Notes: generated by a model from the sequence alone, not told the origin. Counted from the stretch's first letter, positions 19,673 to 35,092 are shown. The stretch: DNA of 64,000 nt from Candidatus Sungiibacteriota bacterium (GCA_016180435.1 JACPBG010000004.1:59660-123659), one strand, 5' to 3'. Numbers and translations: made by a program.

Positions 19673-21865
19673 ATGTCTATTTTGGATATTCCAATTGAAA
19701 ACGCGCCGCGGATCAACCGCCGCATTATTCCGGCGCTTAGGCGTTTGGGCATAAAAACCGTGCGCGATATTTTGTTTCATTTTCCCTCGCGCTATGAAGA
19801 TTTTTCGAACGAGAAACAAATTTCTGAAATAAAAATCGGAGAGATAGTAACCATATCCGGAATTATTAAAAGAACCGCTTTGCACCGCACGGCCCGCAAA
19901 CATATGGCGCTGGTGGAGGCGGTGGTTTCGGACGAGAGCGGATCCATAAAAGCCGTTTGGTTCAACCAGCCGTATCTTTTGCGGAATTTCAGAATCGGCA
20001 ACGCTCTGCGCCTTTCCGGAAAAATTGCCCGCGGACCCAAAGGAGTTTATCTGCAAAATCCCGCATACGAGAAGTTATCAGCTACCAGCTACCAACTACC
20101 AGCTCAACAAAGTATCCATACTGGAGGACTGGTTGCAATTTATCCGGAAACGCGGGGCATTACTTCGCGTTGGTTGAGGTTCTTGGTAAAGACCTTTATT
20201 GATCAGAGAAAATTTATAATTGATCCTCTGTCGACCGATGTGCGGAAAAAGCATGTTCTTCCGGATATTCAAACCGCGCTCAAAGTAATCCATTTTCCGC
20301 AAGATAAAAAGGAATCAAATCAGGCGCGACGTCGGTTCGTTTTTGAGGAACTTTTTTTAATCCAACTTCGTGCGCTTCGCGCCCGGGCGTTACTTAAGCA
20401 ATACTCGGCTCCCCAGATTCCGACCAATTTGCCGCTTCTTAAAGAATTCGTGGCGTCTTTGCCTTTTAAGTTGACCGATGCCCAGCGCCGATCCGTGTGG
20501 GAAATCGCGAAAGATATAGAAAAACCGCGTCCCATGAACCGTCTGCTGGAGGGAGATGTGGGGTCCGGAAAAACCGTGGTTGCGGCCGCAGCCGCATTGC
20601 TTGCGGTTCGCGCGGGATACAAGATCGCATTTATGGCGCCCACCGAAATTCTGGCGCACCAGCACTATGATACGTTTCAGAAAATACTTGAGCCGTTTGA
20701 TATAAAAATTGGAATTTTGACCGGCGCGAAAAAATTAGCACAAAATGCGGACATAATAGTCGGCACGCATGCGCTTCTCCACCCCGTTAGAAGTAAGACG
20801 TCGGGGGCGTCTGCCGATCCAATTTTATCGGATCGGACTTCTAACGGGGTAAAAAAATCCGCCAGGTTTGAAAATTTGGGGCTGGTGATTATTGACGAAC
20901 AGCATCGTTTCGGAGTCCAGCAACGAGCGGCGCTTGTTGTACGCGGATCTGCGTTGCTGCCCCACTTTTTAAGCATGAGTGCAACCCCCATTCCGCGCAC
21001 TCTTGCCCTTACAATCTATGGAGACTTGGACCTTTCCATATTGGATGAGATGCCAAAATCGCGGAAACAGGTTATTACGAGAATCATAGAGCCGGGGAAA
21101 CGGAATGAGGCATACCAATTTATTCGATCAGAAGTAAAAAAAGAAAGACAAGTTTTTGTGATATGTCCGCGCATAGAGCCATCACCAACGAATAACCCCG
21201 AAGTAGAACCATCGGTTCACTACGGGGCAGGCGAATCCGGCGCGAATAAACGAATAAATGAATCGGCGTTTCGCTTGTGGGAGGTTAGGGCGGTGAAAGA
21301 TGAATATAAAAAACTTTCCGAAACAATTTTTCCCGAATTTAAAATAGGAATGCTTCACGGCAAATTAAAATCCAAAGAAAAAGAGGCGGTGATGAAAAAA
21401 TTTAAAAGCGGAGAAATCGATATTCTGGTTTCAACTTCGGTGGTGGAGGTCGGCGTGGATATACAAAATGCCACGATCATGATTATAGAGGGCGCGGAGC
21501 GTTTCGGGCTGGCACAACTTCATCAATTCCGCGGCCGCGTGGGGCGCGGGACTGATCAATCATATTGTTTTCTTTTTCCCACCGAGGACGGCATGGTAAC
21601 GCGGCGTCTGCGCGCGGTGGTGGATGCCAGAAACGGATTTGAGCTGGCGGAGCAGGATCTGAAAATCCGCGGTCCCGGCGATCTTTTCGGGACGGAACAA
21701 TGGGGAATTTCGGATACGGCCATGGCCGCAATTACCGATTCGGTTTTGGTCCGAGAGGTGCGCTCTGCCGCTTATGATTTGATGCGTGAAGACCCCCTGC
21801 TTTTACTTGTGCCGGAGTTAAAGCGCAAACTTGAAGAGATTGAAAAAACAGCTCATCCGGAATAA
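19673..21865 (+). CDS. recG: ATP-dependent DNA helicase RecG, carrying in-frame palindromic-element insertions
   Basis: LEGDVGSGKTVVAAAAALLAVRAGYKIAFMAPTEILAHQH (Walker A region), LVIIDEQHRFGVQQR (DExH), helicase C motifs; wedge-domain region FNQPYLLRNFRIG. Confidence 0.9.
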   Translation: MSILDIPIENAPRINRRIIPALRRLGIKTVRDILFHFPSRYEDFSNEKQISEIKIGEIVTISGIIKRTALHRTARKHMALVEAVVSDESGSIKAVWFNQPYLLRNFRIGNALRLSGKIARGPKGVYLQNPAYEKLSATSYQLPAQQSIHTGGLVAIYPETRGITSRWLRFLVKTFIDQRKFIIDPLSTDVRKKHVLPDIQTALKVIHFPQDKKESNQARRRFVFEELFLIQLRALRARALLKQYSAPQIPTNLPLLKEFVASLPFKLTDAQRRSVWEIAKDIEKPRPMNRLLEGDVGSGKTVVAAAAALLAVRAGYKIAFMAPTEILAHQHYDTFQKILEPFDIKIGILTGAKKLAQNADIIVGTHALLHPVRSKTSGASADPILSDRTSNGVKKSARFENLGLVIIDEQHRFGVQQRAALVVRGSALLPHFLSMSATPIPRTLALTIYGDLDLSILDEMPKSRKQVITRIIEPGKRNEAYQFIRSEVKKERQVFVICPRIEPSPTNNPEVEPSVHYGAGESGANKRINESAFRLWEVRAVKDEYKKLSETIFPEFKIGMLHGKLKSKEKEAVMKKFKSGEIDILVSTSVVEVGVDIQNATIMIIEGAERFGLAQLHQFRGRVGRGTDQSYCFLFPTEDGMVTRRLRAVVDARNGFELAEQDLKIRGPGDLFGTEQWGISDTAMAAITDSVLVREVRSAAYDLMREDPLLLLVPELKRKLEEIEKTAHPE
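20782..20849. repeat. RPE-like palindromic element, family 1 (CCCCGTTAGAAGT...ACTTCTAACGGGG), inserted in-frame in recG adding ~23 aa (PVRSKTSGASADPILSDRTSNGV)
   Basis: terminal 13-bp inverted repeats; same termini at 29584-29684 and 59050-59183. Confidence 0.8.
21196..21227. repeat. palindromic element family 2 copy (CCCCGAAGTAGAA-n8-TTCACTACGGGG) inside recG
   Basis: shares TTCACTACGGGGCAGGCG with 18661-18680. Confidence 0.6.
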
Positions 21866-21892
21866 AAATCCATTCTCCGACTTAATTTTAAT

Positions 21893-21932
21893 TCCTATCT
21901 TATGCTTACGCGCGATCGCGCGTAAGCATAAG
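21893..21932. terminator. 36-bp perfect palindrome tcttatgcttacgcgcgatcgcgcgtaagcataaga between convergent recG and 22016..22612; likely bidirectional terminator; adjacent tandem repeat aaaagtgtgcgaataaaa x2 and second hairpin gtaccgaatttagttcggtac
   Basis: seen directly. Confidence 0.6.
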
Positions 21933-22015
21933 ATGGAAAAGTGTGCGAATAAAAAGTGTGCGAATAAAAAATGTACCGAATTTAGTTCGGTACAATACCG
22001 CATTCGCATCGGTTT

Positions 22016-22612
22016 CTACTGCAAAATGTCTTTTTCGGGAATATAAATTCCTTGCTCGCGAAGCCATTCCAAATTCTTTTGATCGCCCGTATTTACATAA
22101 CGCTTCCACACGGCGGTAACCACCTCAAGTTCTATGCCGACATTTCCCTCTACCAGCACATGGGAAAAGACCCGGACGAATTTATGGATATCGGCAGCCA
22201 GTGTATTGAAAGTAACTGCTTGGCCGACCTCTCTAATTATTCGTTCATATAGCTTTTGATATGCGGTCGCGGCGGTTTGAATATAATATTCCGTCCCCAA
22301 AATTCGGTGGGAAATAAGTTTTTGGGCAGTAAATACGCCGGAAACCAAAAGGGCTGTATCTCCAATGTATTTTATTCTTAAATTTGCCTCTCGTCCGTTT
22401 TGCGGCAGAAGCAAATAAAGAATTGTATTCAGGTGATATTCGTTCAGGACACCTTTTTCTTTACAAAAAAATTCCATGAGAACATCAACAAGGTAACTTT
22501 CTACCATAAGATAATCATTGGTTAGGGGAAGATTTTGAACTTCCCAAATTTTGTCAAGGAGCTCCCGAAAAAGTTCGGGCGGAGTGGTAACTGTATCAAT
22601 AATGGGTTTCAT
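22016..22612 (-). CDS. hypothetical protein
   Basis: ORF with good coding look, no recognisable motif. Confidence 0.4.
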   Translation of the reverse strand: MKPIIDTVTTPPELFRELLDKIWEVQNLPLTNDYLMVESYLVDVLMEFFCKEKGVLNEYHLNTILYLLLPQNGREANLRIKYIGDTALLVSGVFTAQKLISHRILGTEYYIQTAATAYQKLYERIIREVGQAVTFNTLAADIHKFVRVFSHVLVEGNVGIELEVVTAVWKRYVNTGDQKNLEWLREQGIYIPEKDILQ

Positions 22613-22684
22613 GGCCGCCCCCCGGTTCCGGAATAAATATATATAAATATACTACCCTATTATTCTAAAAATAAAAGCCCGCTC

Positions 22685-24145
22685 TTATTGAACGGGTTTG
22701 AATACTAATTGATTTTCGGAAACGCAAAGCAGCGTTTCTTTGCCATTGACGGTCGTATTCAGGACCACTTCGTGCCCCCAAAGCTGGCGAAGATACTGGA
22801 GCGTCTTCTCGGCATATTCTAACTGGAGGTCGCGGCCGTCATGGGCGTGCTTCAAATATAGCGTTCGCTCACTGTTATAATCGGCATCCTCAACTTTAAT
22901 GACCGGTATGGTTCCGGTGCCGACGTTTTGAATCAAAGTGTCTTTGATGCTCCGCCAGTTCTCCTCGTCGGCGACGCGGCTGATGACTTTGTCGTTGCCC
23001 CTGGTTTGATATTCAAACAGTTTGAGTTCGCGAACCAGGTCTTCAGTAAGGAATCGTCGAAGAAAAGATGTGTCCCGCTCAACTTCGCGCACCACAAATA
23101 TTTTATTCCTGCCCTGCATTGTTTTTATGTTCCAGTCGCTTCGTTCGCTAGCCGTACACAAATCATATTCCGGACCGAAACGGCCTTTATCCCACCGCTC
23201 TTCAATGTCTTCCCAGATTTTCATGCCAACATGATACGGATTTAGGCCGCCCGGAGTCGGACAGAGCACCTGCGTGTGGCGCACGATGAACTCCATATGT
23301 AGGTTTTGAGGCAGTTCTAGGGATTCAAGGATTCGTTTGTGCCAGAAGCTTGCCCAACCCTCGTTCATAATCTTGGTTTCCATCTGGGGAATGAAATACT
23401 GCGCTTGTTCGTGTACGATGGTCAAAAGGTCTTTTTCCCATTCCGCCAAGTGCGGGTTATGATCCCGCACAAAGAGAAGTATGTCTTCTTCCGGATAGGG
23501 CGGGACCTTTGTCAAGTCGGGTTCCACGTGTTCTACTCTCCGATGGATGGCGTGGTGCGGGTCATGCCTTGGCCTTGATTCATCGATTTTTCGTTCTTTC
23601 TGCTCTTTCTCGGTTTCTTTCTTGATGGAAAGATTCCGTCGGCATTGGAGCGATAGCGCGTGCGCCGCGTCAAGTACGCGCTCAACTTTTTCCAGTCCAA
23701 TGCTTGGATCCTCAATGTAGTGGCGCACGCGGTTGGCGTGAGCCTTGAATGTTTCAATAGTGTATTCCGTCTGGGTGGTTCTGAAAGTGAAGTTGTTCTT
23801 AAAAAAGTCGTTGTGCGCGTATACATGGGCGATGGTGAGAACCTGCAAGGCCAGACTGTTATCGCGCATGAGATAGGCGATGGAGGGATTGGAATTGATC
23901 ACCATCTCGTAGGGCAGGCCGCTGAGACCGTAGTCGTAAAGGGTTTTGAGTTTCTCGAACCCCTTGCCGTAAGACCAGTGGGGATAGTGGGAGGGCATGC
24001 CGGAATAGACCATATAAGAGAGCATCTGTTCATAGTCGCAGACCTCGAATTCCTGGGAATAGGGGTCAAGACCGAATTTTTGCACCAGTTCAACGATACG
24101 CTGGTTCCACTCCTGGAGATCTTCGGTTGTCCATTCTCTACTCAT
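22685..24145 (-). CDS. SpoVR/YcgB-family protein
   Basis: N-terminal similarity pattern to YcgB: ...SYMVYSGMPSHYPHWSYGKGFEKL...PYEMVINSNPSIAYLMRDNSLALQVLTIAHVYAHNDFFKNN. Confidence 0.8.
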   Translation of the reverse strand: MSREWTTEDLQEWNQRIVELVQKFGLDPYSQEFEVCDYEQMLSYMVYSGMPSHYPHWSYGKGFEKLKTLYDYGLSGLPYEMVINSNPSIAYLMRDNSLALQVLTIAHVYAHNDFFKNNFTFRTTQTEYTIETFKAHANRVRHYIEDPSIGLEKVERVLDAAHALSLQCRRNLSIKKETEKEQKERKIDESRPRHDPHHAIHRRVEHVEPDLTKVPPYPEEDILLFVRDHNPHLAEWEKDLLTIVHEQAQYFIPQMETKIMNEGWASFWHKRILESLELPQNLHMEFIVRHTQVLCPTPGGLNPYHVGMKIWEDIEERWDKGRFGPEYDLCTASERSDWNIKTMQGRNKIFVVREVERDTSFLRRFLTEDLVRELKLFEYQTRGNDKVISRVADEENWRSIKDTLIQNVGTGTIPVIKVEDADYNSERTLYLKHAHDGRDLQLEYAEKTLQYLRQLWGHEVVLNTTVNGKETLLCVSENQLVFKPVQ

Positions 24146-25346
24146 AATTCACCTCGTTTTTAATGTTTGCGCGGTCTTTGGCAAGAAAGGTCTTGAAGGC
24201 GGACCAGATATCCTCTTTGCGCTGGATTTGCACCGTGAGGAAGTTGGGCTCCTGGATCTGCGAGAAATACTGAATCATGCTGCTGCCGTAGTAGCCCGCG
24301 CCCAAGGGCTTGATTTCGCCGTAGCCAAACAGATTGGATATTTTGGCGAGTTCCCGCGCGGAATTTAGCGCGGCGGTATTGTCGGATTCGAAATTGTCGC
24401 CGTCGGAACAGTGAAAGGCGTAAACGTTCCAGAGAGCGGGATGATATCGTTCATTGATGACCTCCAGGGCCTTGTTGTAGCCGGATGAGATAAAGGTTCC
24501 GCCGGATTCGCCCTTGTGGAAAAACTCTTCCTCGGTCACTTCGCGGGCTTCGGTGTGATGGGCGATGAACACGATCTCGACGTTCTGATAGCGCGTGCGC
24601 AGGAATTGGTACAGTAAAAAGAAGAAACTGCGCGCTAGATACTTTTTCATTGTATCCATGGAGCCGGAAGTATCCATGATGGCCATAACTACGGCGTTGG
24701 ATTCGCGCCGCATCTCTTTGACAACATGGTGGTAGCGCAGATCATCCTCGTGAAAAGGAAAGCGCTCGCCGTGAAGATTCGCGGCACCGGAGCGATGTGC
24801 GGATTTTTTGCGTCGTACTCGGGCACGGGCAGTGCGTTTTTTGTCCAAGCGCACGCGGATGCCTTTTTTTCGGAATCCTTTTTGGCGGAGATGGTCTACC
24901 GTCACGATTTCGCGTAAGTGCTTGCGTTCCAGATCCGGCAGTTCCAGGTCTTCGAACATCACTTCAATCAACTCATCGAGGCTGACCTCGGTCTCGTAGT
25001 AATCAACGCCGGCTTGGTCTCCGGCTTGCTGGCCCTGAGCGCCTTTTTTGCCTTGGCCAATGGTTTGTCCGGGCTGCAGGTCACCGTCCCCGCCTTGTCC
25101 CACGCCGGGCGCGTTCTCTCCGTAAACGAAACGGTATTCTTTTACACCTCGAATCGGCACTTTGATCACGCGGTTTTTGTCTTTGCCGATAATGGATTCT
25201 TCGGCGATGATGTCGGCGATGTTGTTACGAATCGCCTCGCGTACTTTCTGGCGGTGGCGCTGGCGATCCCCGGCCGATCGGTCGCTGCGCTGTCCGGAGG
25301 AAGGGTGATATGGCCGAAATATAGTATCCATCCGATAAACCTCCAA
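24138..25346 (-). CDS. YeaH/YhbH-family protein (DUF444, vWA-like)
   Basis: DTSGSMD...YQNVEIVFIAHHTEAREVTEEEFFHKGESGGTFISSGY...WNVYAFHCSDGDN closely parallels E. coli YeaH core. Confidence 0.8.
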   Translation of the reverse strand: MEVYRMDTIFRPYHPSSGQRSDRSAGDRQRHRQKVREAIRNNIADIIAEESIIGKDKNRVIKVPIRGVKEYRFVYGENAPGVGQGGDGDLQPGQTIGQGKKGAQGQQAGDQAGVDYYETEVSLDELIEVMFEDLELPDLERKHLREIVTVDHLRQKGFRKKGIRVRLDKKRTARARVRRKKSAHRSGAANLHGERFPFHEDDLRYHHVVKEMRRESNAVVMAIMDTSGSMDTMKKYLARSFFFLLYQFLRTRYQNVEIVFIAHHTEAREVTEEEFFHKGESGGTFISSGYNKALEVINERYHPALWNVYAFHCSDGDNFESDNTAALNSARELAKISNLFGYGEIKPLGAGYYGSSMIQYFSQIQEPNFLTVQIQRKEDIWSAFKTFLAKDRANIKNEVNYE

Positions 25347-25435
25347 TTGTAAAAGGCCTGTTTCTGTATTCGTAGTAGTATCATAATCGGCAAATAAAGT
25401 CCACGGATAAAAAAAGACACCCTGGCCGGGTGCCG

Positions 25436-27427
25436 TTATTTAAAAATTCGTCTGGCGTAGCTTAACAGGTTCTGCCAGCAACACTCCCGGTATCCTCTAT
25501 TCTGCAATAGTTCTTTCTTTATTTTGTCTAGGTTCTGCTTGGCTTTGTTGGGGTCAATCCCTTTGTCTTTCTCTTGATCCAGTGAATTCCAACATACTGC
25601 ACGCCTCACTATATCGTGATATTCGCTTATGATTTGCTTGGTCACCGCTTCTTCGAGCGGCAGATGGCTATCAAAATCATACGGCGGATCTCCCGGCAGG
25701 TTAGAATCCACACATTTTCTGAAATCATCGGCAGCTACTCCAATCACCGCGATTTGTTCCTCAATCTTTTCAAGAAAGTCCCGATTTGGATCTATGCACG
25801 TCACCTTGTTTTCGGCGTCCCGGATTTCAACTTTTTGTTTTTTTAAAAGGGCTTTCGTGTGAACCGCATAATCGTTGAAATACGTTTTTTGCCGCTCGGT
25901 GAATGCGGAGGATCCGACATGGCCGCGTACCAAATCTTCAAAGGCGCGATCTTGATACCAATCCCCCTCCAGCGGCGCGTGATCATATTCTCCCGATGAA
26001 TTCTTATCAATGGGGACCCACTTTTTTATCCGCGCCAAAGAGTCGCTTTCAAGGTTTTCAAAATTGGCTTCACGAATCGTCCTGATAAATTGGTTGATGC
26101 CTATGCAATTGTTCTGTTGCCCGGCCAACGCCATCAGATTGCCACCTTGGCGCATAGTCAGGCCGCGCGTTCCGTCTTTAGGCCTTTTATCACAGAGTTC
26201 TCGAAAACTATGTTTGACGAGGAATTTTCTATCGTCAGAAATCATGGCGCCGCCGCCGTAAAAAAGCGCCGCCTCGGCATTTTCGAGCTTCAGCTTATAT
26301 GGATAGTTATCCGTGTCAAGACGAGATGCGGTTATTACCTGACAGGCGGCCTCCTCTACCCACGGGACAAAGTGAAAACTGCGTCCCTCACTCATTGATT
26401 CTTTGCGCTGAATCTTAAGTTCCGCAACCGGATCCATAACCATAGGAAATGTTACGGAAACCACTCGATCAATGAGCGCGTCCTCTTTTGGAAACGCCTC
26501 TTTGATCGTTTTATTACTAATGCTTACAACCGCTATGTCCGGCCACCAGTCGGTTTGATCCCGGCCCTTGAACCAGCCGTCGCTGACCATCCGGCTTAAC
26601 CTGCCGCAAAATTCTAGGTTTTGTGCGGGAAAGTCAACAAAGAAAAGCCCACCGTTGGCCAAATCAATTACTCGGTACCAATCCTCCGGAATTTTTGAAA
26701 CCCTGCCTTCCTTGTCAAATTCCGGTTCAGTCAACCTCCCCTCGATCTGCAACATCCCGATACCTGCCCCCAGGCGGTATTCAGATGATTTTACCGGCAT
26801 ATTTTCCCATTTTCCGCCAAATTCATTTTGAAAACGCTCTTCGCATCCTCGACACAGCCGTCCTCGAAAACGAGACAGGCGAGAAGCTATATTTTCATGG
26901 CATAACACCTTTTGAATATCATCCCGCGGGTGTCCTATTTTTTTCCGCAGTGTACGCGGAATGGCGTTTAACGGATGCTCGTGGTGCGGACATTCCTCAA
27001 GGTAAAAAAAGCTTTCTTCTTCCATTTTGTCCGCGATGAGTTTCAGCCACGTTGTCTTTCCTACCCCGGTTTTGCCGGTGACCTCGAGTATTCTCCGCTC
27101 CATGGCTCCGCCGGATGCTGCTTGTCTGAAGAATTCGCCTGTTTCCGCCAAATAGGGATCAATGCCGACAAGTTCATTTTTGAACAAAGGAAAACGCATA
27201 TACTGCGGCGGTTGATTGTGAAACAGATTTTTCTCACGCGGGGCCTTGAGCTCCGATAGGATTTCCGGCCCCTCCCCGTTTATAGTCGAGGAAATCGCTT
27301 TCCATACTTTGCTGTATGCGCGATCAAGCAGTTCGGGTTTTTCCTGGGCGCACCTTAAAAGGTCTCCAATTGTTTTGATTTCGCTTGACATTTTGTCAGC
27401 TCCTTTTCCGATTCTGATTTTATTCAA
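25436..27427 (-). CDS. PrkA-like paralog (divergent PrkA-family AAA/serine-kinase-like protein)
   Basis: Walker A VTGKTGVGKTTWL, CP..H..PL, FGGKWENMP, FLEKIEEQIAVIGVAADDFRKCV all parallel motifs in the adjacent canonical PrkA. Confidence 0.7.
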   Translation of the reverse strand: MNKIRIGKGADKMSSEIKTIGDLLRCAQEKPELLDRAYSKVWKAISSTINGEGPEILSELKAPREKNLFHNQPPQYMRFPLFKNELVGIDPYLAETGEFFRQAASGGAMERRILEVTGKTGVGKTTWLKLIADKMEEESFFYLEECPHHEHPLNAIPRTLRKKIGHPRDDIQKVLCHENIASRLSRFRGRLCRGCEERFQNEFGGKWENMPVKSSEYRLGAGIGMLQIEGRLTEPEFDKEGRVSKIPEDWYRVIDLANGGLFFVDFPAQNLEFCGRLSRMVSDGWFKGRDQTDWWPDIAVVSISNKTIKEAFPKEDALIDRVVSVTFPMVMDPVAELKIQRKESMSEGRSFHFVPWVEEAACQVITASRLDTDNYPYKLKLENAEAALFYGGGAMISDDRKFLVKHSFRELCDKRPKDGTRGLTMRQGGNLMALAGQQNNCIGINQFIRTIREANFENLESDSLARIKKWVPIDKNSSGEYDHAPLEGDWYQDRAFEDLVRGHVGSSAFTERQKTYFNDYAVHTKALLKKQKVEIRDAENKVTCIDPNRDFLEKIEEQIAVIGVAADDFRKCVDSNLPGDPPYDFDSHLPLEEAVTKQIISEYHDIVRRAVCWNSLDQEKDKGIDPNKAKQNLDKIKKELLQNRGYRECCWQNLLSYARRIFK

Positions 27428-27558
27428 AAGTTAACGTGCTGGGTTAGATATACGACATAATTATATAAAATACAAGGGCGTCTCGTACCAAATAAAATTC
27501 CCGTCACGTAAACGTAACGGGCTACTAAGTTCTAAGATCTAAGTTCTTGGTGCTTGTC

Positions 27559-29493
27559 TTAATCTTTCCACAGGTTATTGGCCGCGTATTTGAGAATCAC
27601 GTCCACGCAGCTCGGGCAGTATCCATGCTCAAGGAGATTTTTGGTCATCATGTCGTATTTTTCCGTTTGCTCCGTGTCGCGCATGCGCGACTTGGTGATA
27701 ACCCGGCTTAGGTCGCGCACCGAAGTGATGAGTTTTTTCTCAATGGCCTCTTTGAGTGGCTCGTAACTGCGGAAGTCAATCTTTTCTTCGCGCCGCTTGG
27801 CTGCCCATAGATAGGAGATCACTTCCTGGCGGAATCCGTCGGCGGCCGAGCCGATGATGGCGATTTGCTCCTCGATTGATTTCATGAATCCTTCGTCGGG
27901 CGCCAACTCTTCTTTGGTGTTGCGATCCTTTACTTTGCTCTTGTTAACGTAGGCCTCGGCGTGATCCAGGTAATTCTGGAATAGCGCCTCCGCCTGCTCC
28001 TGGTAGGAATAGACAAACGCGCGGGTAATCTCCTTTTCCAGCACCTCAAGGTACTCCTTGTGCAGTGTATCCTGGAGAAACTCCAGATACTGCTTGCGCA
28101 TTTCGTCCGACAGATCAGCTTCCTTCACCATGTTGATCAGCGCTTCCCGAACATTGATGGGGTTGATGCAGTTGCCAGCGGTATTGTCGGTGAGCGCGTT
28201 ATCCAAGGCCTTCATTATGAAGCGCGTGGAAATACCGTTCATGCCTTCGCGTTTGGCTGCCTCGCGCAATTCCTGTACATCAACTTTCTTGGTGCGCCCC
28301 TTCTCAAGCACCTCTTCGCCGTTATACAGCTTCAGCTTGGTCATGAGGTCGCACTTGTTGGTGGGCTCCAGGCGCGACAGGATCGCGAACATGGAGGCGA
28401 CCTCCAGGGTGTGCGGCGCCACGTGGGCGCGGAAGTCGGAGTTGCGGATGATCTTCTGATAAATTTTAACTTCTTCGGAGAGGCGCAGGTTGTAGGACAC
28501 GCGAATCACCACAATGCGATCCAGAATCGCTTCGTTGGTGTGGTCTCCCTTGAATTTCTGCCACTCAGCCTCGTTGGAATGGGCCACGATAACTGTGTCC
28601 ACATAGACCAATCCGTGGCGGCCGGGCGCGGGCACAACCTTTTCTTGGGTCGCCGTGATCATGCAATGGAGATACTCGATTTCGTTTTTGAAAACCTCAA
28701 TGAACTCAACTATGCCGCGGTTGCCAACATTAAGCGCGCCATTTAGTTCCAGGACCCGCGGATCGCCCTCGGAATAGAGATCCAACTTCGAGATATCTTC
28801 GCTGCCGATCAGTACGGAAGTATCTTGGTTATTGGAATCCACAGGCGGAACCGATGCGGTACCGACCCGCGCGCGTTTGGAAAATTCCACGGTAGTAATT
28901 GGGAAGTCCTCATACTTGCCGCCGAACTCTTCTTTAAGCCGATAACGGCAGACCGGACACAGGTCGCCTTCAATGTGAATTCCCAGCATCTTTTCAAATT
29001 CTTTTCTCAAGTGGCGCGGTATCAAATGCAGGGGCTCTTCGAACATCGGACAGCCATCAATGGCGAAGATGGGATCGCTTGCCTCCAGGCCTCGATTCAG
29101 TTTTTCCGCAAGCGAGCTTTTGCCGGAACCCACCGGACCCATCAGATAGAGCACCTGGCGGCTTTCTTCACCTTTGAGCGATGCGGCGTGGAAGTAGCGC
29201 ACGATCTGGCTGACTATTTTCTCGATGCCGAAGAACTCATCGGTGAAGAAATCGTAAACCTTGATTGACTCGTCTTTGAAAAGACGTTTAACGTGGGGGT
29301 CGGTGCTTTCCTGAATGTCGCGGACGCCTGCTTTGACGATGATGTCATAAAAACGGGCGTGAGCCAGCTTGGCGATGGAGGGATCTTCCTTGATCTTGTC
29401 GAGGTAGCCGAGTAGCTTCCCGCTCCAATCATTTCGCCTATGGTGTGTTTCTCGGTCCTGTCTGATCAGTTCTCTGTATTCGTCTTCGCTCAT
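27559..29493 (-). CDS. prkA: PrkA-family serine protein kinase (YeaG-like)
   Basis: LYLMGPVGSGKSSLAEKL, FGGKYEDFP, NGALNVGNRGIVEFIEVFK, HCMITATQEK, IVAHSNEAEW, EEQIAIIGSAADGFRQEV. Confidence 0.85.
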   Translation of the reverse strand: MSEDEYRELIRQDRETHHRRNDWSGKLLGYLDKIKEDPSIAKLAHARFYDIIVKAGVRDIQESTDPHVKRLFKDESIKVYDFFTDEFFGIEKIVSQIVRYFHAASLKGEESRQVLYLMGPVGSGKSSLAEKLNRGLEASDPIFAIDGCPMFEEPLHLIPRHLRKEFEKMLGIHIEGDLCPVCRYRLKEEFGGKYEDFPITTVEFSKRARVGTASVPPVDSNNQDTSVLIGSEDISKLDLYSEGDPRVLELNGALNVGNRGIVEFIEVFKNEIEYLHCMITATQEKVVPAPGRHGLVYVDTVIVAHSNEAEWQKFKGDHTNEAILDRIVVIRVSYNLRLSEEVKIYQKIIRNSDFRAHVAPHTLEVASMFAILSRLEPTNKCDLMTKLKLYNGEEVLEKGRTKKVDVQELREAAKREGMNGISTRFIMKALDNALTDNTAGNCINPINVREALINMVKEADLSDEMRKQYLEFLQDTLHKEYLEVLEKEITRAFVYSYQEQAEALFQNYLDHAEAYVNKSKVKDRNTKEELAPDEGFMKSIEEQIAIIGSAADGFRQEVISYLWAAKRREEKIDFRSYEPLKEAIEKKLITSVRDLSRVITKSRMRDTEQTEKYDMMTKNLLEHGYCPSCVDVILKYAANNLWKD

Positions 29494-29583
29494 CTTTTTT
29501 CTCCTTGTTTTGTGGCCAATATTGAGTTACCAAAGATCACATTACGTAAGCGCACTATAGCGCAAACCCCCATAAAAAGTCAA

Positions 29584-29684
29584 CCCCGTTAGAAGTTTGG
29601 TCCTGAAATCTCCATACGATTCAAATAATCCAACTATTATTGTGATGACGCATACACCGGGTGAGGATTACACTTCTAACGGGG
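29584..29684. repeat. RPE-like palindromic element family 1, intergenic copy
   Basis: CCCCGTTAGAAGT ... ACTTCTAACGGGG termini. Confidence 0.8.
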
Positions 29685-29929
29685 TCAACCCCCCAGTTTT
29701 GTACAATACGAGATTAGCCCCAAATAATCCTTAACTATACGGTATCAAAGGTAATTCCTCGACTCGCTCGGCTCGCTTGGAGAATATTGTTCGAGTTTAT
29801 CGAGAACCTTCCTAAGGTAACCGCGCAGCAAGCTGACGCGGAATTATCAAGTTAAAAAACCCATGAAATTCCATGGGCCCATTTTATTGAGGTGAAGACG
29901 GGGCGAGCAAGCCCGCGGTTTTCTGGGGC

Positions 29930-29962
29930 GCGGATAAAAAATCGGGCGAGGCCCGATTAAAT
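29930..29962 (-). terminator. rho-independent terminator downstream of Pup-like locus (AATCGGGCctcGCCCGATT + T-run on minus strand)
   Basis: hairpin followed by TTTTTTATCC on coding strand. Confidence 0.6.
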
Positions 29963-31674
29963 TAACTCATATTTATTTCATCTTCATTTTCCGGATGTGT
30001 ATCGGATATCGCCGGTCTGAATTTTTTGGCGGCGCGATTTACTTGCGCCAGCGCTTTTCTGTCGCGGGCGGATATTTTGTAACGCTCCGGGTCGAGGTTT
30101 TTGATATATAGGATTTTGGCGGATCTCTTGCCTGCATTAAATACAAAAGTAAACTCTTCCCAAACAGAGTCAACCAGGCATTTTTTATCGAGCTCGCGGG
30201 AAAAAATTATCCGGAGTATTTCTTCGCGCCAGTTAGCGCGCGTGCGTTCCGGCGGATTTTGCGTGGCCCACCTGACAAGATTTTCCGGAAATAATTTTTT
30301 AATAAGGCCGGCGCGAAGATACTGGCCGTAGGGACTTTGGGCGGTGTCCATGAATGCGTACTCGGATATGAACTCAAGAATATCTCGCAAAACATCCTGG
30401 TTGGAAGATGTGGGGATTTTTCCAACCGGCCGTTCTTCGCCGCGCGGCAGGATAGCTTCCGGATCAAACCCTCGGCTTTTCAGATACGGCATGATAAAAT
30501 AATGCAAAATCGCGGCCCAATCCAGGAATTGCGCAAGATACGGGAGGTCCCAGTGGGCGATCGCATCAATTATGTTTTCCCAGAGATTAAGGGCAAGTTT
30601 CCGTTCCGGGCTGAAGGATTGGCGTCCCGGCCCCGCAAAAAATTCCTGCGCCTGTTTTATGTAGAAGCGCTGGAAATCAAGCGCGTTCCAGCGTAAACCC
30701 TCTTCCAGAAGCGAAACCGGATTTTTTGATCCGGGGTCGGCGTTAAAAAAAAGCGAGGCCTCGAATAAATCCATCGGATAAATGTTCGGCGGGATCTTTA
30801 GAAATTTCTCTTCGGCCATGGTCAGAATAATGTCCAGCGTTGCATATTTCAAAAACAATTGCCATGCGGACATCGTGGAATTTCCTGACACATCATGGTG
30901 GCGTCTCCATCTCGTTTTGTCTGCGTATTGAGAATCTTTTTTTGAGAAGAAACTGGGTTTGTCTTCGGCCTTCCTGTTATTTTTCATGACCTCGGCGCGT
31001 TGGGAGAGGACAAACTGCAGGGTGTTGTCCGTTGCATTGATTTTTATCCAGCCGTTTCCAATAAGGCACCAGCGCGATATTAAAAACGGTATAATTAATT
31101 CGAAAAAATCACTGCGTTTGGAAAAGACCGATTTTTTTACCAAATAATTGGCATGCGAGCCCCAGCTGTTAACATCTAAATCCACCATCGGATACAATTC
31201 CACGTCGTAACAACAATTTCGGTTGGTCTTATAAAGTTTGAAATCCAAACCGGTTTTTCTTTTCAGGCGCCGCATCATCTGCGTCATAATCTGGAGCCCC
31301 GCGCTCTCAAAAAGCGCAAGTTCCAGGGCGCCCAGGCACTCCGGAGTGGAATATTCCACATGTTCGTTATCTATATAGATGATTCCTTGATTAGGAAGAA
31401 CGGCTTTGGGACGCCGGTTTGAGAAGCTGTCGTCATCCGGGTTGATTAGCCGGCGGCGGTCTTGTTTTGAAACCGCAGCGCGCAGAATCAATGGCTGATT
31501 TTCCGATTCCTTGACAAGAAGAAAAGGCTCCGGCGAACTTAATTCATTTTCGGCGCCCATGATGCGATGGATTATTCTTTCGGTTTTTTGCGAACCCATG
31601 CGTGTACCGTATTGAATTGGCAAGTTCCTGAATAAAGCATCGCAAGATATACGAAATAAAGCAAGCGGCGGCAT
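29962..31674 (-). CDS. PafA/Dop-family (Pup ligase/deamidase family) homolog 2; start may be internal Met (~31599)
   Basis: RIMGAENE (cf. RIMGIETE), IYIDNEHVEYSTPEC (cf. LYLDVGSHPEYATAEC), WGSHANYLV (GCHENYL), FVLSQRAE (LSQRA), RRHHDVSGNSTMS (RRLHVIVGDSNMS). Confidence 0.7.
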   Translation of the reverse strand: MPPLALFRISCDALFRNLPIQYGTRMGSQKTERIIHRIMGAENELSSPEPFLLVKESENQPLILRAAVSKQDRRRLINPDDDSFSNRRPKAVLPNQGIIYIDNEHVEYSTPECLGALELALFESAGLQIMTQMMRRLKRKTGLDFKLYKTNRNCCYDVELYPMVDLDVNSWGSHANYLVKKSVFSKRSDFFELIIPFLISRWCLIGNGWIKINATDNTLQFVLSQRAEVMKNNRKAEDKPSFFSKKDSQYADKTRWRRHHDVSGNSTMSAWQLFLKYATLDIILTMAEEKFLKIPPNIYPMDLFEASLFFNADPGSKNPVSLLEEGLRWNALDFQRFYIKQAQEFFAGPGRQSFSPERKLALNLWENIIDAIAHWDLPYLAQFLDWAAILHYFIMPYLKSRGFDPEAILPRGEERPVGKIPTSSNQDVLRDILEFISEYAFMDTAQSPYGQYLRAGLIKKLFPENLVRWATQNPPERTRANWREEILRIIFSRELDKKCLVDSVWEEFTFVFNAGKRSAKILYIKNLDPERYKISARDRKALAQVNRAAKKFRPAISDTHPENEDEINMS

Positions 31675-31710
31675 GAAAAAACGGGGAATATTCCCCGTAG
31701 AAATAAGTAT

Positions 31711-31911
31711 TTATTCGCCTTTTTCCTGTATGTGGCGGCGCCTTTTGCGTCGGGCCTTTTTCTTCAGATCCTTCTTGTTTTTCTTGAGTACCTCGTTGAT
31801 CCTTTTCTTTATTTCCTCCGCTTCCTCAACTGTGGCTCCAGGATTATTTATCACACCCCGCTCGGGGATATTGAATTCCGGGCGCTCTATTTTCTCGCGT
31901 TTTACCGGCAT
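31711..31911 (-). CDS. candidate Pup/UBact-like small protein modifier (66 aa, ends -QEKGE)
   Basis: located between two PafA/Dop homologs; helical segment ATVEEAEEIKKRINEVLKKN resembles Pup Mpa-binding helix TEETDDLLDEIDDVLEENAE; C-terminal Gly-Glu like Pup -GGQ/-GGE. Confidence 0.5.
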   Translation of the reverse strand: MPVKREKIERPEFNIPERGVINNPGATVEEAEEIKKRINEVLKKNKKDLKKKARRKRRRHIQEKGE

Positions 31912-31974
31912 AAAGACCTAATTTGCGCATATTTATCGGTTCTCATAACATTTTACGCCATATCCGAAAAATCA

Positions 31975-33567
31975 TCAAACGCAGAATTTCACAACTTTAA
32001 CCGGAATCATTCTTTCGGCATCGGCCAGAAATTTTTCAAGCGGCAGAGCCAGAAGCTGATCGGCAACTCCTTGGTTCCACATAAGAGTCGGGTCTTGGAA
32101 ATAAAGTTCTGCGCGGACAGTTCTTTTGGCCGGATTTTTAAATGAAATCATGTGCCAATAATTAGAGTCCGCAATATTTTTTTTGAAGCGGCGCGCCACA
32201 TTCATAATCCAGCGCGAGCGGGTTAGGGGCGGGGCGCCCACGGCGCCGTTGATATCCTGGTCGTGCGTAATGCGTCCGTTTTTGGCGAAAATTTCGCGCT
32301 GGAACACGCTTTCCGGATCATTATCATGGTATTCGTAGTCAAGCCCCATGGCTAAATCGCTTTTCCAGCCCCCTCGCTCTTGGGAGACGGCGTTTTGTAT
32401 GAATAGGAATTTGGTCGGCCAATCCAAAACGCCATAAAGCGATTCGTAGTCGCGCCGGAAAAGTTTTTTAAGAATATCGGCCAGGCGCGCTAAAACATCA
32501 TAAAGCACTTCATTTTCCGGATGATATTCATCCAGATAATTTCCGAAAAGTTCGTAATAATCCCAAAGGCAATCAAGCGCGAGGCGCGTTCTTTTTTTAT
32601 TTCGCAAAGTAACGCGGTGCGTCATGTCAAGCGAGCGCGAAATTGCCCAAAATTCTTTAACAGGATCCATGAGGGCGAAGCGGTTGTCCAGTACCTCATC
32701 CTCAAGCATCATAAAAAGTATGGATGTTAAGCCAATTTTGAGATACTCCGGAATTTCCAGCATATTGGAATCGCCGGGAATAACATGTATTCGGCGGAAG
32801 CGTCCGGCGTCGGCATACGGAGCGTCGCGGGTGTTATATATTCCCCGATCCTCCATGGTGTCCAGTCCCCACTCGCAGGTGAAAAAATCAGCGCGCTGGG
32901 AAATCTGGTAAGGCGCCTCCGGGGTGCAGTTGTCTGCCCCGATTTTGCCGGCTCCGATAAGAGGCGTGCGCAACACCAGCCACGGCACCGTATGCGATAT
33001 TAATTTTTCTAAAGGAATCCGGCGCAAAACCGTATAATTTTCGTGGCAAGCAAAAGAGTTGCGGGCGCCGGAGCCAGGAATATAATCTTGCGGTTTTCCG
33101 GCAACGTTATTTCTAATTACGGCGTATTTTTTTCTGTGAACCTCCTCGTGTTTTTTTCGCAAGAAATCAATTATGCGGTAACAGGCGCGATTCCAGGTAA
33201 TGAGCATTTTCGGATCAGAGCAGATCGGAGTTGAAATCTCGACATGCGCGCCATCAAGATATAGCCGGGCGCCGTTGGCAAGCAATATATTTTCACGCGA
33301 GCACCAGGAGTTCTCCTCAAAAAAATCATGATTTTTAGCGTCAGCATTTTTGGAAAGATCGCTAAACAACTCCGCTCGTATTTGCGGGCTTAATCTCTCC
33401 TGCGGATTCCACGGGATCATGCATGCATCCGGCATCCATTCGGGTTGGATGGATTGAATGAATTTGGCGTTGGCCGATATAGGGCCTGCGCGGGATGACA
33501 GATCAATGATCCCGAATTCGGTTTCAATCCCGCACATCTTGGGAATGGCGCGTGATTCTTTTGGCAT
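31975..33567 (-). CDS. PafA/Dop-family homolog 1 (clear member)
   Basis: MCGIETEFGI, NGARLYLDGAHVEISTP, FACHENY, ISQRADF, YNTRDAPYADAGRFRRIHVIPGDSNM. Confidence 0.85.
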   Translation of the reverse strand: MPKESRAIPKMCGIETEFGIIDLSSRAGPISANAKFIQSIQPEWMPDACMIPWNPQERLSPQIRAELFSDLSKNADAKNHDFFEENSWCSRENILLANGARLYLDGAHVEISTPICSDPKMLITWNRACYRIIDFLRKKHEEVHRKKYAVIRNNVAGKPQDYIPGSGARNSFACHENYTVLRRIPLEKLISHTVPWLVLRTPLIGAGKIGADNCTPEAPYQISQRADFFTCEWGLDTMEDRGIYNTRDAPYADAGRFRRIHVIPGDSNMLEIPEYLKIGLTSILFMMLEDEVLDNRFALMDPVKEFWAISRSLDMTHRVTLRNKKRTRLALDCLWDYYELFGNYLDEYHPENEVLYDVLARLADILKKLFRRDYESLYGVLDWPTKFLFIQNAVSQERGGWKSDLAMGLDYEYHDNDPESVFQREIFAKNGRITHDQDINGAVGAPPLTRSRWIMNVARRFKKNIADSNYWHMISFKNPAKRTVRAELYFQDPTLMWNQGVADQLLALPLEKFLADAERMIPVKVVKFCV

Positions 33568-33649
33568 ATTCCGCCCCTTTTAAAAAGCTGATCCCAGCGT
33601 AGCAGGTTTTGGGCCAAAATAAAATACCCCCGCGCGCTGCGTAGGGGCG

Positions 33650-33856
33650 TTATTTTGGATGGTTGCGATTTTCGCGGATGTCCTGGAATCTTCGGAGCAT
33701 CGCTTTTTGGGCGGATTCCAAAATATCAGACCGCAGGATTTTGAGCGATTGGTCAGTTCCGTGTTCAAGCCGTTTTAGTGCGGCCAGCTTGGCATTGCGG
33801 ACCGTTTCCTCGATCATGGCGCCGGTTATTACGTCAATTCCCTGTGACCTTTGCAT
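33650..33856 (-). CDS. small hypothetical helical protein overlapping AAA gene 3' end
   Basis: ORF only. Confidence 0.25.
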   Translation of the reverse strand: MQRSQGIDVITGAMIEETVRNAKLAALKRLEHGTDQSLKILRSDILESAQKAMLRRFQDIRENRNHPK

Positions 33857-34994
33857 TTCCGTTGTCCGCTTTCAGTTCATCCATGTCAAATGGCAGCTCG
33901 GGCAGGAGGTATTTTCTAAAAATATCTTTGGTGCCGCTGGTGCCTGGGGCCTTGATTTCAAGTATAAGATCAATGCGGCCCGGCCGTATCACGGCGCGGT
34001 CAAAAATGTCGCGGCGGTTTGAAGCAAAAATAACCAAGACATTATCGAGTTTTTCCAGGCCGTCAAGTTCTCCCAGAATTTGCGATACCAGCGGGTCAAA
34101 AAGCTGGGAATTGATTCCGGCCGAGTCGCGCGGGCGCAAAATGGACTCCGCTTCGTCAATAAATATTACGCACGATTCGCGCCGCGCTTCGGCAAAAACC
34201 ATGCGAACTTTTTCTTCTCCGGTGCCGATCAGCGGCCTAAGAAACTCCGCGCTGTTAAAATAAAGGAATCGTCGTCCGAGTTCTTTGGCCAGCGCTTTGG
34301 CCAGCATGCTTTTTCCGCAGCCCGGGGGGCCGATTAGCAGCACGCCCTTGGTGGGACGTAAATTTAACTTTCGGAAGGCGTCCGGGAAGCGTTGCGGATA
34401 TTCTATGGCCGCGCGCAGTTCCTCGATTTCTTTATCCAGGCCGCCGATATCCGAAAAACTTACATCCAGCGCATAGTCCTTGGCAAATGAGGGCGGTGTC
34501 GGCTCGGGCAGTTTTTCAAAAAGAAAACCAGACGCTGAATCCATCAGGAGCTTATCGCCCGGTTTCAATTCTTGTGACCGAAGGGACGAGGCCAGAACGC
34601 CAACCGGCTCTCGGGATTGATGTGCAACCAACGCGCGACCGTTATCCAGTTTTTCTTTAAATGTAACGGCAACGCCCGAACGGATGGGTGCGCGTACTTT
34701 GCCGATAATGTTCATGGCCGAATTTAAAATTACCACATCTCCGGGTTCCAGCGCGTCAGCGCCCCGTGCATTATAGAATGGATTACCTACCCTTATGGGT
34801 ACTGGTCGGCCGTCGGCAAAAACATCTACGGTTTTGTCGTCATTATGTTGCCCTAAAATTCCATAATAAAAAGGCGGTTTTGAAATTTTTTCCGTGTACG
34901 CCAGGGCGTTTTTAAGCGCTTGCTCAAGTTCGGAATTCCTTCTTTCCAGAAGAACAATCTCGCGCAGCGTGTGGGCAGATTTATTACGGGCCAT
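33834..34994 (-). CDS. short proteasomal-ATPase-like AAA+ protein (coiled coil + single OB-like + AAA), Mpa/ARC/PAN-like but lacking C-terminal HbYX/GQYL tail
   Basis: Walker A GPPGCGKSMLAK, Walker B VIFIDEAES, second region RPGRIDLILE; N-term coiled coil LREIVLLERRNSELEQALKNA. Confidence 0.75.
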   Translation of the reverse strand: MARNKSAHTLREIVLLERRNSELEQALKNALAYTEKISKPPFYYGILGQHNDDKTVDVFADGRPVPIRVGNPFYNARGADALEPGDVVILNSAMNIIGKVRAPIRSGVAVTFKEKLDNGRALVAHQSREPVGVLASSLRSQELKPGDKLLMDSASGFLFEKLPEPTPPSFAKDYALDVSFSDIGGLDKEIEELRAAIEYPQRFPDAFRKLNLRPTKGVLLIGPPGCGKSMLAKALAKELGRRFLYFNSAEFLRPLIGTGEEKVRMVFAEARRESCVIFIDEAESILRPRDSAGINSQLFDPLVSQILGELDGLEKLDNVLVIFASNRRDIFDRAVIRPGRIDLILEIKAPGTSGTKDIFRKYLLPELPFDMDELKADNGNAKVTGN

Positions 34995-35092
34995 TTGTCG
35001 ATTTTTCCTGGAAAAGTTCTACTTTATTCTTATCATCCCGCGTCAAATAGCGCAAATTAAAAATCGGCCCGGCGGGGTCTTAGTTTTTGAAA

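Follow-up and report, generated by a model that had tools for sequence, protein, structure and literature searches.

A divergent PrkA paralog within the prkA-yeaH-spoVR gene cluster of a Candidatus Sungiibacteriota bacterium

The PrkA-YeaH-SpoVR genes form one of the most widespread conserved clusters linked to stress, starvation and sporulation in bacteria and archaea. Here we describe a version of this cluster in which a second, strongly diverged prkA gene (prkA2) lies between the canonical gene (prkA1) and yeaH. It was found in a 64,000-nucleotide stretch of DNA, referred to below as the window, from a Candidatus Sungiibacteriota bacterium (GCA_016180435.1 JACPBG010000004.1:59660-123659); other loci and proteins are given by L and P numbers, respectively. 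Four open reading frames (ORFs), all on the minus strand and in the same direction, span positions 22685-29493. The first, prkA1 (27559..29493, minus strand), encodes a canonical PrkA/YeaG-type AAA+ protein of 644 aa with Pfam matches to AAA_PrkA (492.7 bits) and PrkA_C (295.2 bits), and the PDB entry 9xip, 'Serine protein kinase', matches it with E = 6e-108. PrkA1 carries K125, R259, E263, E266, H305, N307, R326 and R374 as well as the pore-loop segment with Y240. Downstream of prkA2, yeaH/yhbH (DUF444; 24138..25331, minus strand, start ATG 25331) encodes 397 aa and is recognised by Pfam DUF444 (400.7 bits) and by NCBIfam spore_yhbH TIGR02877 (497.7, exceeding the cut-off of 467.95). Its product contains a VWA-type DxSxS motif (DTSGS), and the YeaH ortholog of L012 matches VWA_CoxE. 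The last gene, spoVR (22685..24145, minus strand, 486 aa; Pfam SpoVR 486.9 bits, SpoVR_C 58 bits), shares an 8-nt overlap with yeaH, the sole overlapping gene pair of the cluster.

The divergent paralog prkA2 occupies 25436..27391 on the minus strand. An earlier reading of the window by a model (the sequence-only reading) had proposed the three-gene module with an additional, strongly diverged PrkA of 663 aa. The Pfam matches and the level of identity between the two PrkAs bear out the arrangement and the second gene, but not the length. The longest prkA2 ORF (25436-27427) does give 663 aa, starting from a TTG; the likely start is ATG 27391, giving 651 aa: AAGGAG precedes it by 8 nt, and gene calls on 9 contigs gave exactly this 651-aa protein, P0001. 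Both Pfam domains are matched by PrkA2 only in part (cut-off 25 in each case): AAA_PrkA at 74.8 bits over profile positions 2-177 of 358, and PrkA_C at 40.7 bits over positions 114-255 of 255.

PrkA1 and PrkA2 are 26% identical over their full length (BLASTP E = 2e-41, residues 28-658), and hhalign aligned them with a probability of 100% over residues 1-651 in 590 columns. The Walker A motif GKTGVGKT is present at residues 106-113 of PrkA2. A matching segment of the two proteins reads ECPHHEHPLNAIP versus GCPMFEEPLHLIP, and further motif pairs are EFGGKWENMPV versus EFGGKYEDFPI and IEEQIAVIG versus IEEQIAIIG; all the motifs on which the sequence-only reading had relied (Walker A, CP..H..P, FGGKWENMP and EEQIAVIG) are present. 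Against the NCBIfam equivalog NF011999 (PRK15455; cut-off 576), PrkA2 scored 25.9 bits and canonical PrkA1 438.3 bits; both fall short, and since PrkA1 is also under the cut-off, we regard this model as narrow. The match of 9xip to PrkA2 reached only E = 7e-8. No Lon_C Pfam match was found in the PrkAs. TIGR00763 matched PrkA1 in the Walker A vicinity only (20.7 bits against 608) and did not match PrkA2, and PDB matches to Lon were restricted to residues 83-147.

An AlphaFold2 model of PrkA2, built from an alignment with 85 family members, had a mean predicted local distance difference test score (pLDDT) of 94.8 and a predicted template-modelling score (pTM) of 0.92. In the model, PrkA2 has an AAA+ alpha/beta fold with a helical lid, followed by a C-terminal domain that is almost wholly helical. 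AAA+ proteins alone were among the best listed structural neighbours, which included NorQ-NorD (VWA), BchI and CbbX/CbbQ; the Foldseek search of the PDB with this model did not recover 9xip, the solved PrkA homolog.

We compared motifs between 13 members of the PrkA2 clade and 72 diverse PrkA-family proteins and checked the result by hhalign, with numbering anchored on the annotated B. thuringiensis PrkA and strand positions taken from the DSSP string of the AlphaFold2 model. The scored motif positions are 89-100% conserved among the 72 other proteins. In the clade, G106, K112, D285 and N293 (G119, K125, D299 and N307 in PrkA1) are invariant in 13/13, as are R309 (R326), R357 (R374) and the Cys triad C134/C180/C183. 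Judged by position in the model, N293 would be sensor 1, after beta4, R309 the Arg finger, just before beta5, and R357 sensor 2 in the lid. On the minus strand of the window, Walker A is encoded by 27053-27076, beta3 with D253 by 26633-26647, N293 by 26513-26515, R309 by 26465-26467 and R357 by 26321-26323.

Other positions are changed throughout the clade. R259 is replaced by Gly and H305 by Ile, Val or Met in 13/13, and the position of E263 is a gap in all 13. E266 has become Asp in nine members and Asn, Gly, Gly or Gln in the remaining four, so the near-universal ExxE is reduced to a single Asp that is itself gone in 4/13; P0009, P0010, P0011 and P0013 have lost the acidic residue after beta3. 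In PrkA2 of the window, beta3 (LFFV, residues 249-252 in the model) is followed by D253 and F254 and then by no Glu, where canonical PrkA reads VEFIE-V at the beta3 end. A 16-residue segment (LIGSEDISKLDLYSEG in PrkA1) is also absent from every clade member. The missing segment corresponds to residues 215-230 of B. thuringiensis PrkA and includes T217, S219 and Y228-G229. Phosphorylation of T217/S219 by PrkC switches B. subtilis PrkA off (PMC9512850), and Y228-G229 was assigned to pore loop 1 in a study of B. anthracis (PMC13001217). Among the 72 diverse members, R259, E263, E266, H305 and the L..G..aromatic pore-loop segment are 89-94% conserved.

The two PrkAs of the window have not diverged evenly. 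Their identity is 11% in the pore region and 19% in the beta3-beta5 core, compared with 45% in the Cys insert and 32-33% in the C-terminal domain, and this same beta3-beta5 core is the most conserved part among the co-resident PrkA1 proteins (88%). By these alignments, the divergence of PrkA2 sits in the AAA+ ATPase core and pore and not in a kinase site. The sequence-only reading had suspected a pseudo-kinase with an altered kinase-like C-domain; this does not fit a C-terminal domain that is among the best preserved regions. Inside the clade there are 42 invariant columns, including the clade-specific W238, H340, C429 and C637-C638.

A clade member is found inside the prkA-yeaH-spoVR cluster in 10 of the 11 lineages with enough flanking DNA. 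Two gene orders were observed. The window, L001-L004, L019, L006, L005, L010 and L012 have the order prkA-prkA2(-yeaH-spoVR), with PrkA2 identities to the window protein of 87% (L019 and L006), 57% (L005), 37% (L010) and 29% (L012). In L011, L013, L022 and L016-L018 (27-32% identity) the order is prkA-yeaH-spoVR-(small ORF)-prkA2. Association with DUF444 and SpoVR was seen in the window, L001-4, L006, L019, L011, L012, L013, L016-18 and L022, and the linkage holds where PrkA2 identity is down to 26-30%. A candidate tandem PrkA in Pontibacillus was rejected: the record contains two match places, but the inspected region is an ordinary three-gene module. As a separate observation, L016/L017 (GCA_007376195.1) carry an FtsH gene with an intein and a LAGLIDADG domain (1-885) upstream of the module, and they share with the window a neighbourhood of FtsH ... 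prkA module ... recG, with recG on the opposite strand.

Members of the clade were few. Only five PrkA2 clusters, at 54-100% identity, came out of a word-indexed search among 5.8 billion proteins. A HMMER profile scan of 1.84 billion representatives gave 447 hits, of which only P0001 and P0006-P0013 (9 clusters) scored above the best canonical PrkA; that protein was the window's own PrkA1 (186.8 bits), whose higher score we attribute to its slow evolution. Profile scans of contigs turned up L006 as the one true relative among genomes, besides two canonical PrkAs from Epulonipiscium, and three loci among metagenomes, from which we conclude that the clade is rare. Many proteins of ~1000-1120 aa (P0017, P0018, P0027-P0029, P0032 and others) matched the C-terminal half of the PrkA2 profile only, from ~283 to the end, which suggests a family that joins a PrkA lid and C-domain to a large, unrelated N-terminal region.

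A neighbour-joining tree built from 88 family members recovered the 13 PrkA2 sequences as monophyletic with a bootstrap of 100/100. The co-resident PrkA1 proteins form a separate 100/100 clade, and the two clades grouped in 0/100 replicates; on this basis we rejected the idea that PrkA2 arose as a copy of the resident PrkA1. The phylogeny thus places the paralog as ancient and not sister to its neighbour, and it is not the recent duplicate with intact catalytic residues that would have made this an ordinary duplication. Clade members are 26-57% identical to each other and their ORFs are intact, with lengths of 607-695 aa. Between the same genome pairs, identity is 69-89% for PrkA1, 53-61% for YeaH and 45-60% for SpoVR, compared with 26-57% for PrkA2. 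Comparing the window with L019, the ratio of nonsynonymous to synonymous substitution rates (dN/dS) was 0.176 for prkA2 and 0.063-0.077 for its four neighbours. prkA2 is under purifying selection that is weaker than that on the neighbouring genes. By these sequence comparisons, PrkA2 is neither a recent duplicate nor decaying. The GC content at third codon positions (GC3) is 0.68 for prkA1, 0.65 for yeaH and 0.60 for spoVR, compared with 0.51 for prkA2, 0.49-0.53 for the flanking genes and 0.39 for the ORF that follows spoVR (orf198, see below). The codon usage or history of prkA2 would seem to differ from that of the canonical three genes.

A second PrkA next to the first is already on record: all haloarchaeal genomes are reported to have two adjacent PrkA-related genes beside DUF444 and SpoVR (Anderson et al. 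2011, PMC3102087). The layout of the window therefore has a precedent with the same four-gene content and neighbouring PrkA paralogs, a likeness taken from the published description. The PrkA2 clade differs in that its members come from non-halophile, uncultured bacterial contigs and have a combined Asp and Glu fraction (D+E) of <= 0.16 in 13/13. The 150 proteins that best matched the PrkA2 profile included no strongly acidic ones, and haloarchaeal PrkA was found neither in the plasmid collection nor by acidic composition of the hits. The composition of the proteins, set against a haloarchaeal cluster known here by description, suggests that the PrkA2 clade goes back to a duplication separate from the haloarchaeal one. 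In the literature, we found no paper on 9xip or on 'prkA2' and no description of the bacterial PrkA2 clade or its specific motif losses.

The cluster contains several signals that could divide its transcription. Terminator-like hairpins with a T run follow prkA1 (27500..27521, minus strand) and prkA2 (25416..25434, minus strand), and a hairpin with a T run follows spoVR (22678-22696, minus strand). The post-prkA2 hairpin is retained in L019, where a C-to-T change leaves the pair as G-U. The spacer between prkA1 and prkA2 is the best-conserved non-coding DNA of the region. Its hairpin, CCCGTTACG-TTTA-CGTGACGGG followed by AATTTTATTT, hardly varies in L019 and L005, and L010 keeps it with a pair-improving change. 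Behind it lie a promoter-like TTGTAT-N17-TATATC (27447..27475, minus strand), which was recognised from alignments and was not picked by the promoter scan, and a conserved 17-nt leader, TAACCCAGCACGTTAAC (27430-27446, minus strand). Equivalents of the promoter-like site are TTGACC-N17-TATATC in L005 and TTGCAT...TACATC in L010. A hairpin followed by a promoter-like site is common to five lineages at this place, and the spacer signals (27430-27521, with equivalents in L019, L005, L010 and L012) are conserved though PrkA2 is only 37-57% identical. No Rfam family matches the spacer, and a gathering scan of the window returned tRNAs only. Taken as sequence signals, they could be a regulatory site and suggest separate transcription of prkA1 and prkA2, the latter perhaps jointly with yeaH and spoVR. 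The operon that had been proposed thus stands as a set of co-directional genes and not as a tight operon.

The spacer before prkA1 is 468 bp long in the window and ~116 bp in L019. In the window it contains two terminator-like hairpins that belong to the preceding gene, together with a palindromic element and a promoter-like site. The hairpin that ends the pup-ligase gene (29940..29958, minus strand) is conserved in L019. The promoter-like TTGACT-N18-TATAGT of prkA1 (29554..29583, minus strand) ranked top in 21800-30100 with a score of 10/12, tied with three others; the shorter spacer of L019 retains TTGACA-N17-TATAGT, and AAGGAG lies 7 nt ahead of the prkA1 ATG.

The palindromic repeat element (29580..29688, no strand assigned) has 13-nt terminal inverted repeats, ACCCCGTTAGAAG and CTTCTAACGGGGT, and its right end abuts the -35 hexamer. 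The window contains three copies, at 20778-20853 (within recG, 19673-21865, plus strand), 29580-29688 and 59046-59187 (within an ORF at 58325-59962, minus strand), with six arm matches compared with 0.55 expected by chance. Upstream of prkA1, the element folds with -45.6 kcal/mol (z = -4.6), and z ranges from -4.6 to -6.3 over the copies. The 13-nt termini alone are conserved between the three copies and the interiors differ. The copy in recG is in frame and adds ~25 residues between the helicase motifs GTHAL and LGLVIIDEQHRFG, and RecG of L016 lacks these residues; the third copy is inside a 545-aa ORF without a Pfam match. Two of the three copies have TTGAC on either side, which could represent a duplicated target or a -35-like hexamer facing outward. 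The orthologous spacer of L019, an 87%-identical relative, does not contain the element, which indicates that the element and other DNA were inserted in the lineage of the window. The sequence-only reading had described an RPE-like element here, and the excess of arms in the window agrees with it. Like Rickettsia palindromic elements (RPE), it is a short multi-copy palindrome with one copy in frame within a conserved gene, a likeness of behaviour.

Downstream of spoVR, orf198 (22016..22612, minus strand) encodes 198 aa with no family assigned and no match in Pfam, NCBIfam or PADLOC. It is 87% identical in L019 (dN/dS 0.063). As a fifth gene of the module it was rejected: small ORFs occupy the corresponding position in L011, L016 and L014, but none of them resembles orf198 detectably, and orf198 is probably outside the module and retained in close relatives only. 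A role in anti-phage defence was likewise dropped, as PADLOC gave no matches.

Just upstream of prkA1 in the window (29962-35000, minus strand), and also in L001 and L019, there is a pupylation-type gene set with a Mpa/ARC-like AAA ATPase with proteasomal OB domains and two genes of the Pup-ligase family (a strong match at 31975-33567 and a weak one at 29962-31674). A 66-aa ORF between the latter (31711-31911) ends in ...QEKGE, with a Pup-like C-terminal Glu. FtsH is located farther upstream, and no proteasome subunit genes were seen nearby. We do not count the Pup-ligase genes as part of the system, as they occur only in the lineage of the window and L019 and are absent from the readable upstream flanks of L005, L011 and L016. 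The window and L001 are 100% identical over 15.4 kb save for 65 bp (L001 3480-3544) that are missing at 33847/33848. This splits the Mpa-like gene, one 469-aa ORF in L001, into a 386-aa and a 68-aa ORF; the discrepancy reflects either variation within the population or the assembly. Elsewhere in the window, a 566-aa ORF (39939-41639, minus strand) has two matches to the ThyX (Thy1) domain; ThyX proteins are typically much shorter.

We favour a reading in which PrkA2 is a functional, ancient paralog that is now a specialised accessory or partner of PrkA1 in the PrkA-YeaH-SpoVR module, and we put its probability at somewhat less than one half (about 0.45). PrkA2 is read as functional because of the purifying selection, the intact ORFs, the conserved linkage and the retained nucleotide-site residues. 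The partner or regulatory role that the sequence-only reading had raised is plausible, and the set of conserved motifs is altered. Mechanistically, PrkA2 would bind ATP and hydrolyse it poorly or in an altered manner, and without a pore loop it would be unable to engage or thread substrate. Most likely it would join PrkA1 in a ring, either mixed or stacked, and there, as a non-threading regulatory or adaptor subunit, tune the machine formed by PrkA1, YeaH (VWA) and SpoVR. Its own promoter-like site behind the conserved hairpin would allow the PrkA2:PrkA1 ratio to be set separately.

Compared with canonical PrkA/YeaG (B. subtilis PrkA, B. anthracis BAS0518, E. coli YeaG and 9xip), PrkA2 shares the Pfam domains, length and neighbourhood and retains Walker A, the sensor-1 Asn, two invariant Arg, the Cys triad and the IEEQI..IG block. 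It is, however, only ~25% identical, lacks the pore-loop/phosphosite segment, has a single Asp in place of ExxE, and has R259 and H305 replaced. With the VWA motif of YeaH and the VWA_CoxE match, a trio of AAA+, depleted AAA+ and VWA proteins emerges that resembles BchI/BchD and the MoxR-VWA pairs in organisation. The active AAA+ protein would be PrkA1, the motif-depleted one PrkA2, and YeaH the co-encoded protein with VWA and metal-ion-dependent adhesion site (MIDAS), as in BchI/BchD, NorQ-NorD, CbbQ-CbbO and RavA-ViaA. The analogy is organisational only; PrkA has a large extra N-terminal domain, the Cys insert and a 290-residue helical C-domain. BchD is also not known to have a Walker A, whereas PrkA2 keeps it. 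A bolder version, which we consider possible but less likely than not, is an obligate mixed AAA+ assembly of PrkA1 and PrkA2. In such an assembly, a pore-less and hydrolysis-impaired PrkA2 would supply the Arg finger and a dock for YeaH/SpoVR, a BchI/BchD-like arrangement that candidate-phyla bacteria and haloarchaea would have evolved independently of each other.

Several points weigh against PrkA2 as a partner of PrkA1. The most divergent member, P0012 (L014/L015 8001-10007, GCA_964349275.1), is the exception to the linkage: it is located after gatC-gatA, and prkA, yeaH and spoVR were all absent within 8 kb. Gene order in the cluster also varies between lineages, and the conserved hairpin and separate promoter-like site would speak against strict co-expression. 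Between the window and L019, dN is nearly the same for prkA2 (0.071) and prkA1 (0.070), and dS is 0.40 for prkA2, less than half of the 0.9-1.6 of its neighbours; the raised dN/dS of prkA2 is thus due to its lower dS, for which a different expression level or a recombination history unlike that of the canonical three genes is possible. Hetero-oligomerisation of PrkA1 and PrkA2 is something that we infer, and the retained Walker A, sensor 1, Arg finger and sensor 2 would suit an independent homo-oligomeric ATPase equally well. The 'degenerate Walker B' is a reading of alignments, and the closest eight members and the distant P0012 keep an acidic residue at the beta3 end, such that hydrolysis may be intact.

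The alternative that survives best is that PrkA2 is an independent homo-oligomeric AAA+ ATPase working in parallel to PrkA1 on another client or signal and sharing with it only YeaH and SpoVR or a regulon. We consider this possible, though less probable than a partner role. It fits the complete retention of cis- and trans-acting nucleotide-site residues, the promoter-like site of prkA2 behind a conserved terminator-like hairpin, the variable position of prkA2 in the cluster with one lineage that has no adjacent prkA1, and a GC3 of 0.51 compared with 0.60-0.68, which suggests a different expression level or history. Such an ATPase would, however, need a different mechanism, as the pore-loop segment, E263, R259 and H305 have been lost though they are near-universal in the family, and linkage to prkA1 in 10/11 informative lineages exceeds what a shared regulon usually needs.

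We think it improbable that PrkA2 is a pseudo-enzyme, a non-hydrolysing nucleotide sensor or inhibitor that binds PrkA1, YeaH or SpoVR stoichiometrically without joining a ring, for example by capping or sequestering. No clade member deviates at R309 or R357, which is hard to explain without AAA+-type subunit interfaces, even though P0009, P0010, P0011 and P0013 lack the acidic residue after beta3 while the Walker A Lys is always retained, and the catalytic core is the least conserved region, with the Cys insert and C-domain better preserved.

A pseudo-kinase, in which a kinase-like C-terminal domain would have lost its catalytic residues, is very unlikely. It draws on the Pfam name 'PrkA serine protein kinase C-terminal domain', which PrkA2 matches weakly and partially (40.7 bits), and on E. 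coli YeaG, reported as a kinase in work cited in PMC9512850. The C-terminal domain is nevertheless comparatively well kept (32-33% between PrkA1 and PrkA2) and almost all helical in the model, and two Bacillus studies found neither kinase activity nor a kinase P-loop (PMC9512850, PMC13001217). Finally, a decaying, functionless duplicate, for which the PrkA2 identity of 26-57% compared with 69-89% for PrkA1 between the same genome pairs could speak, is effectively refuted by full-length ORFs in 13/13, a dN/dS of 0.18, the 42 invariant columns and the conserved synteny.

The kinase activity of PrkA itself is disputed (PMC9512850, PMC13001217). A Lon-like protease is what B. subtilis PrkA has been described as, and the B. 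anthracis protein is reported to be neither kinase nor protease. PrkA2 is so far known from a handful of uncultured lineages and is a variant of a known system whose mechanism we infer. Its nucleotide-site residues are kept, and what has been lost is the predicted pore loop along with the phospho-regulated segment and some of the acidic motif; in this sense it is a natural "separation-of-function" variant. That all haloarchaea are also reported to have a second PrkA within the module hints at convergent evolution of a two-subunit machine. If PrkA1 and PrkA2 do form an obligate mixed assembly, nature would already have split the 'motor' from the 'adaptor' functions of PrkA, and comparison of the two paralogs would show which PrkA features are needed for its disputed activity, be it that of a kinase, a protease or a remodelling ATPase.

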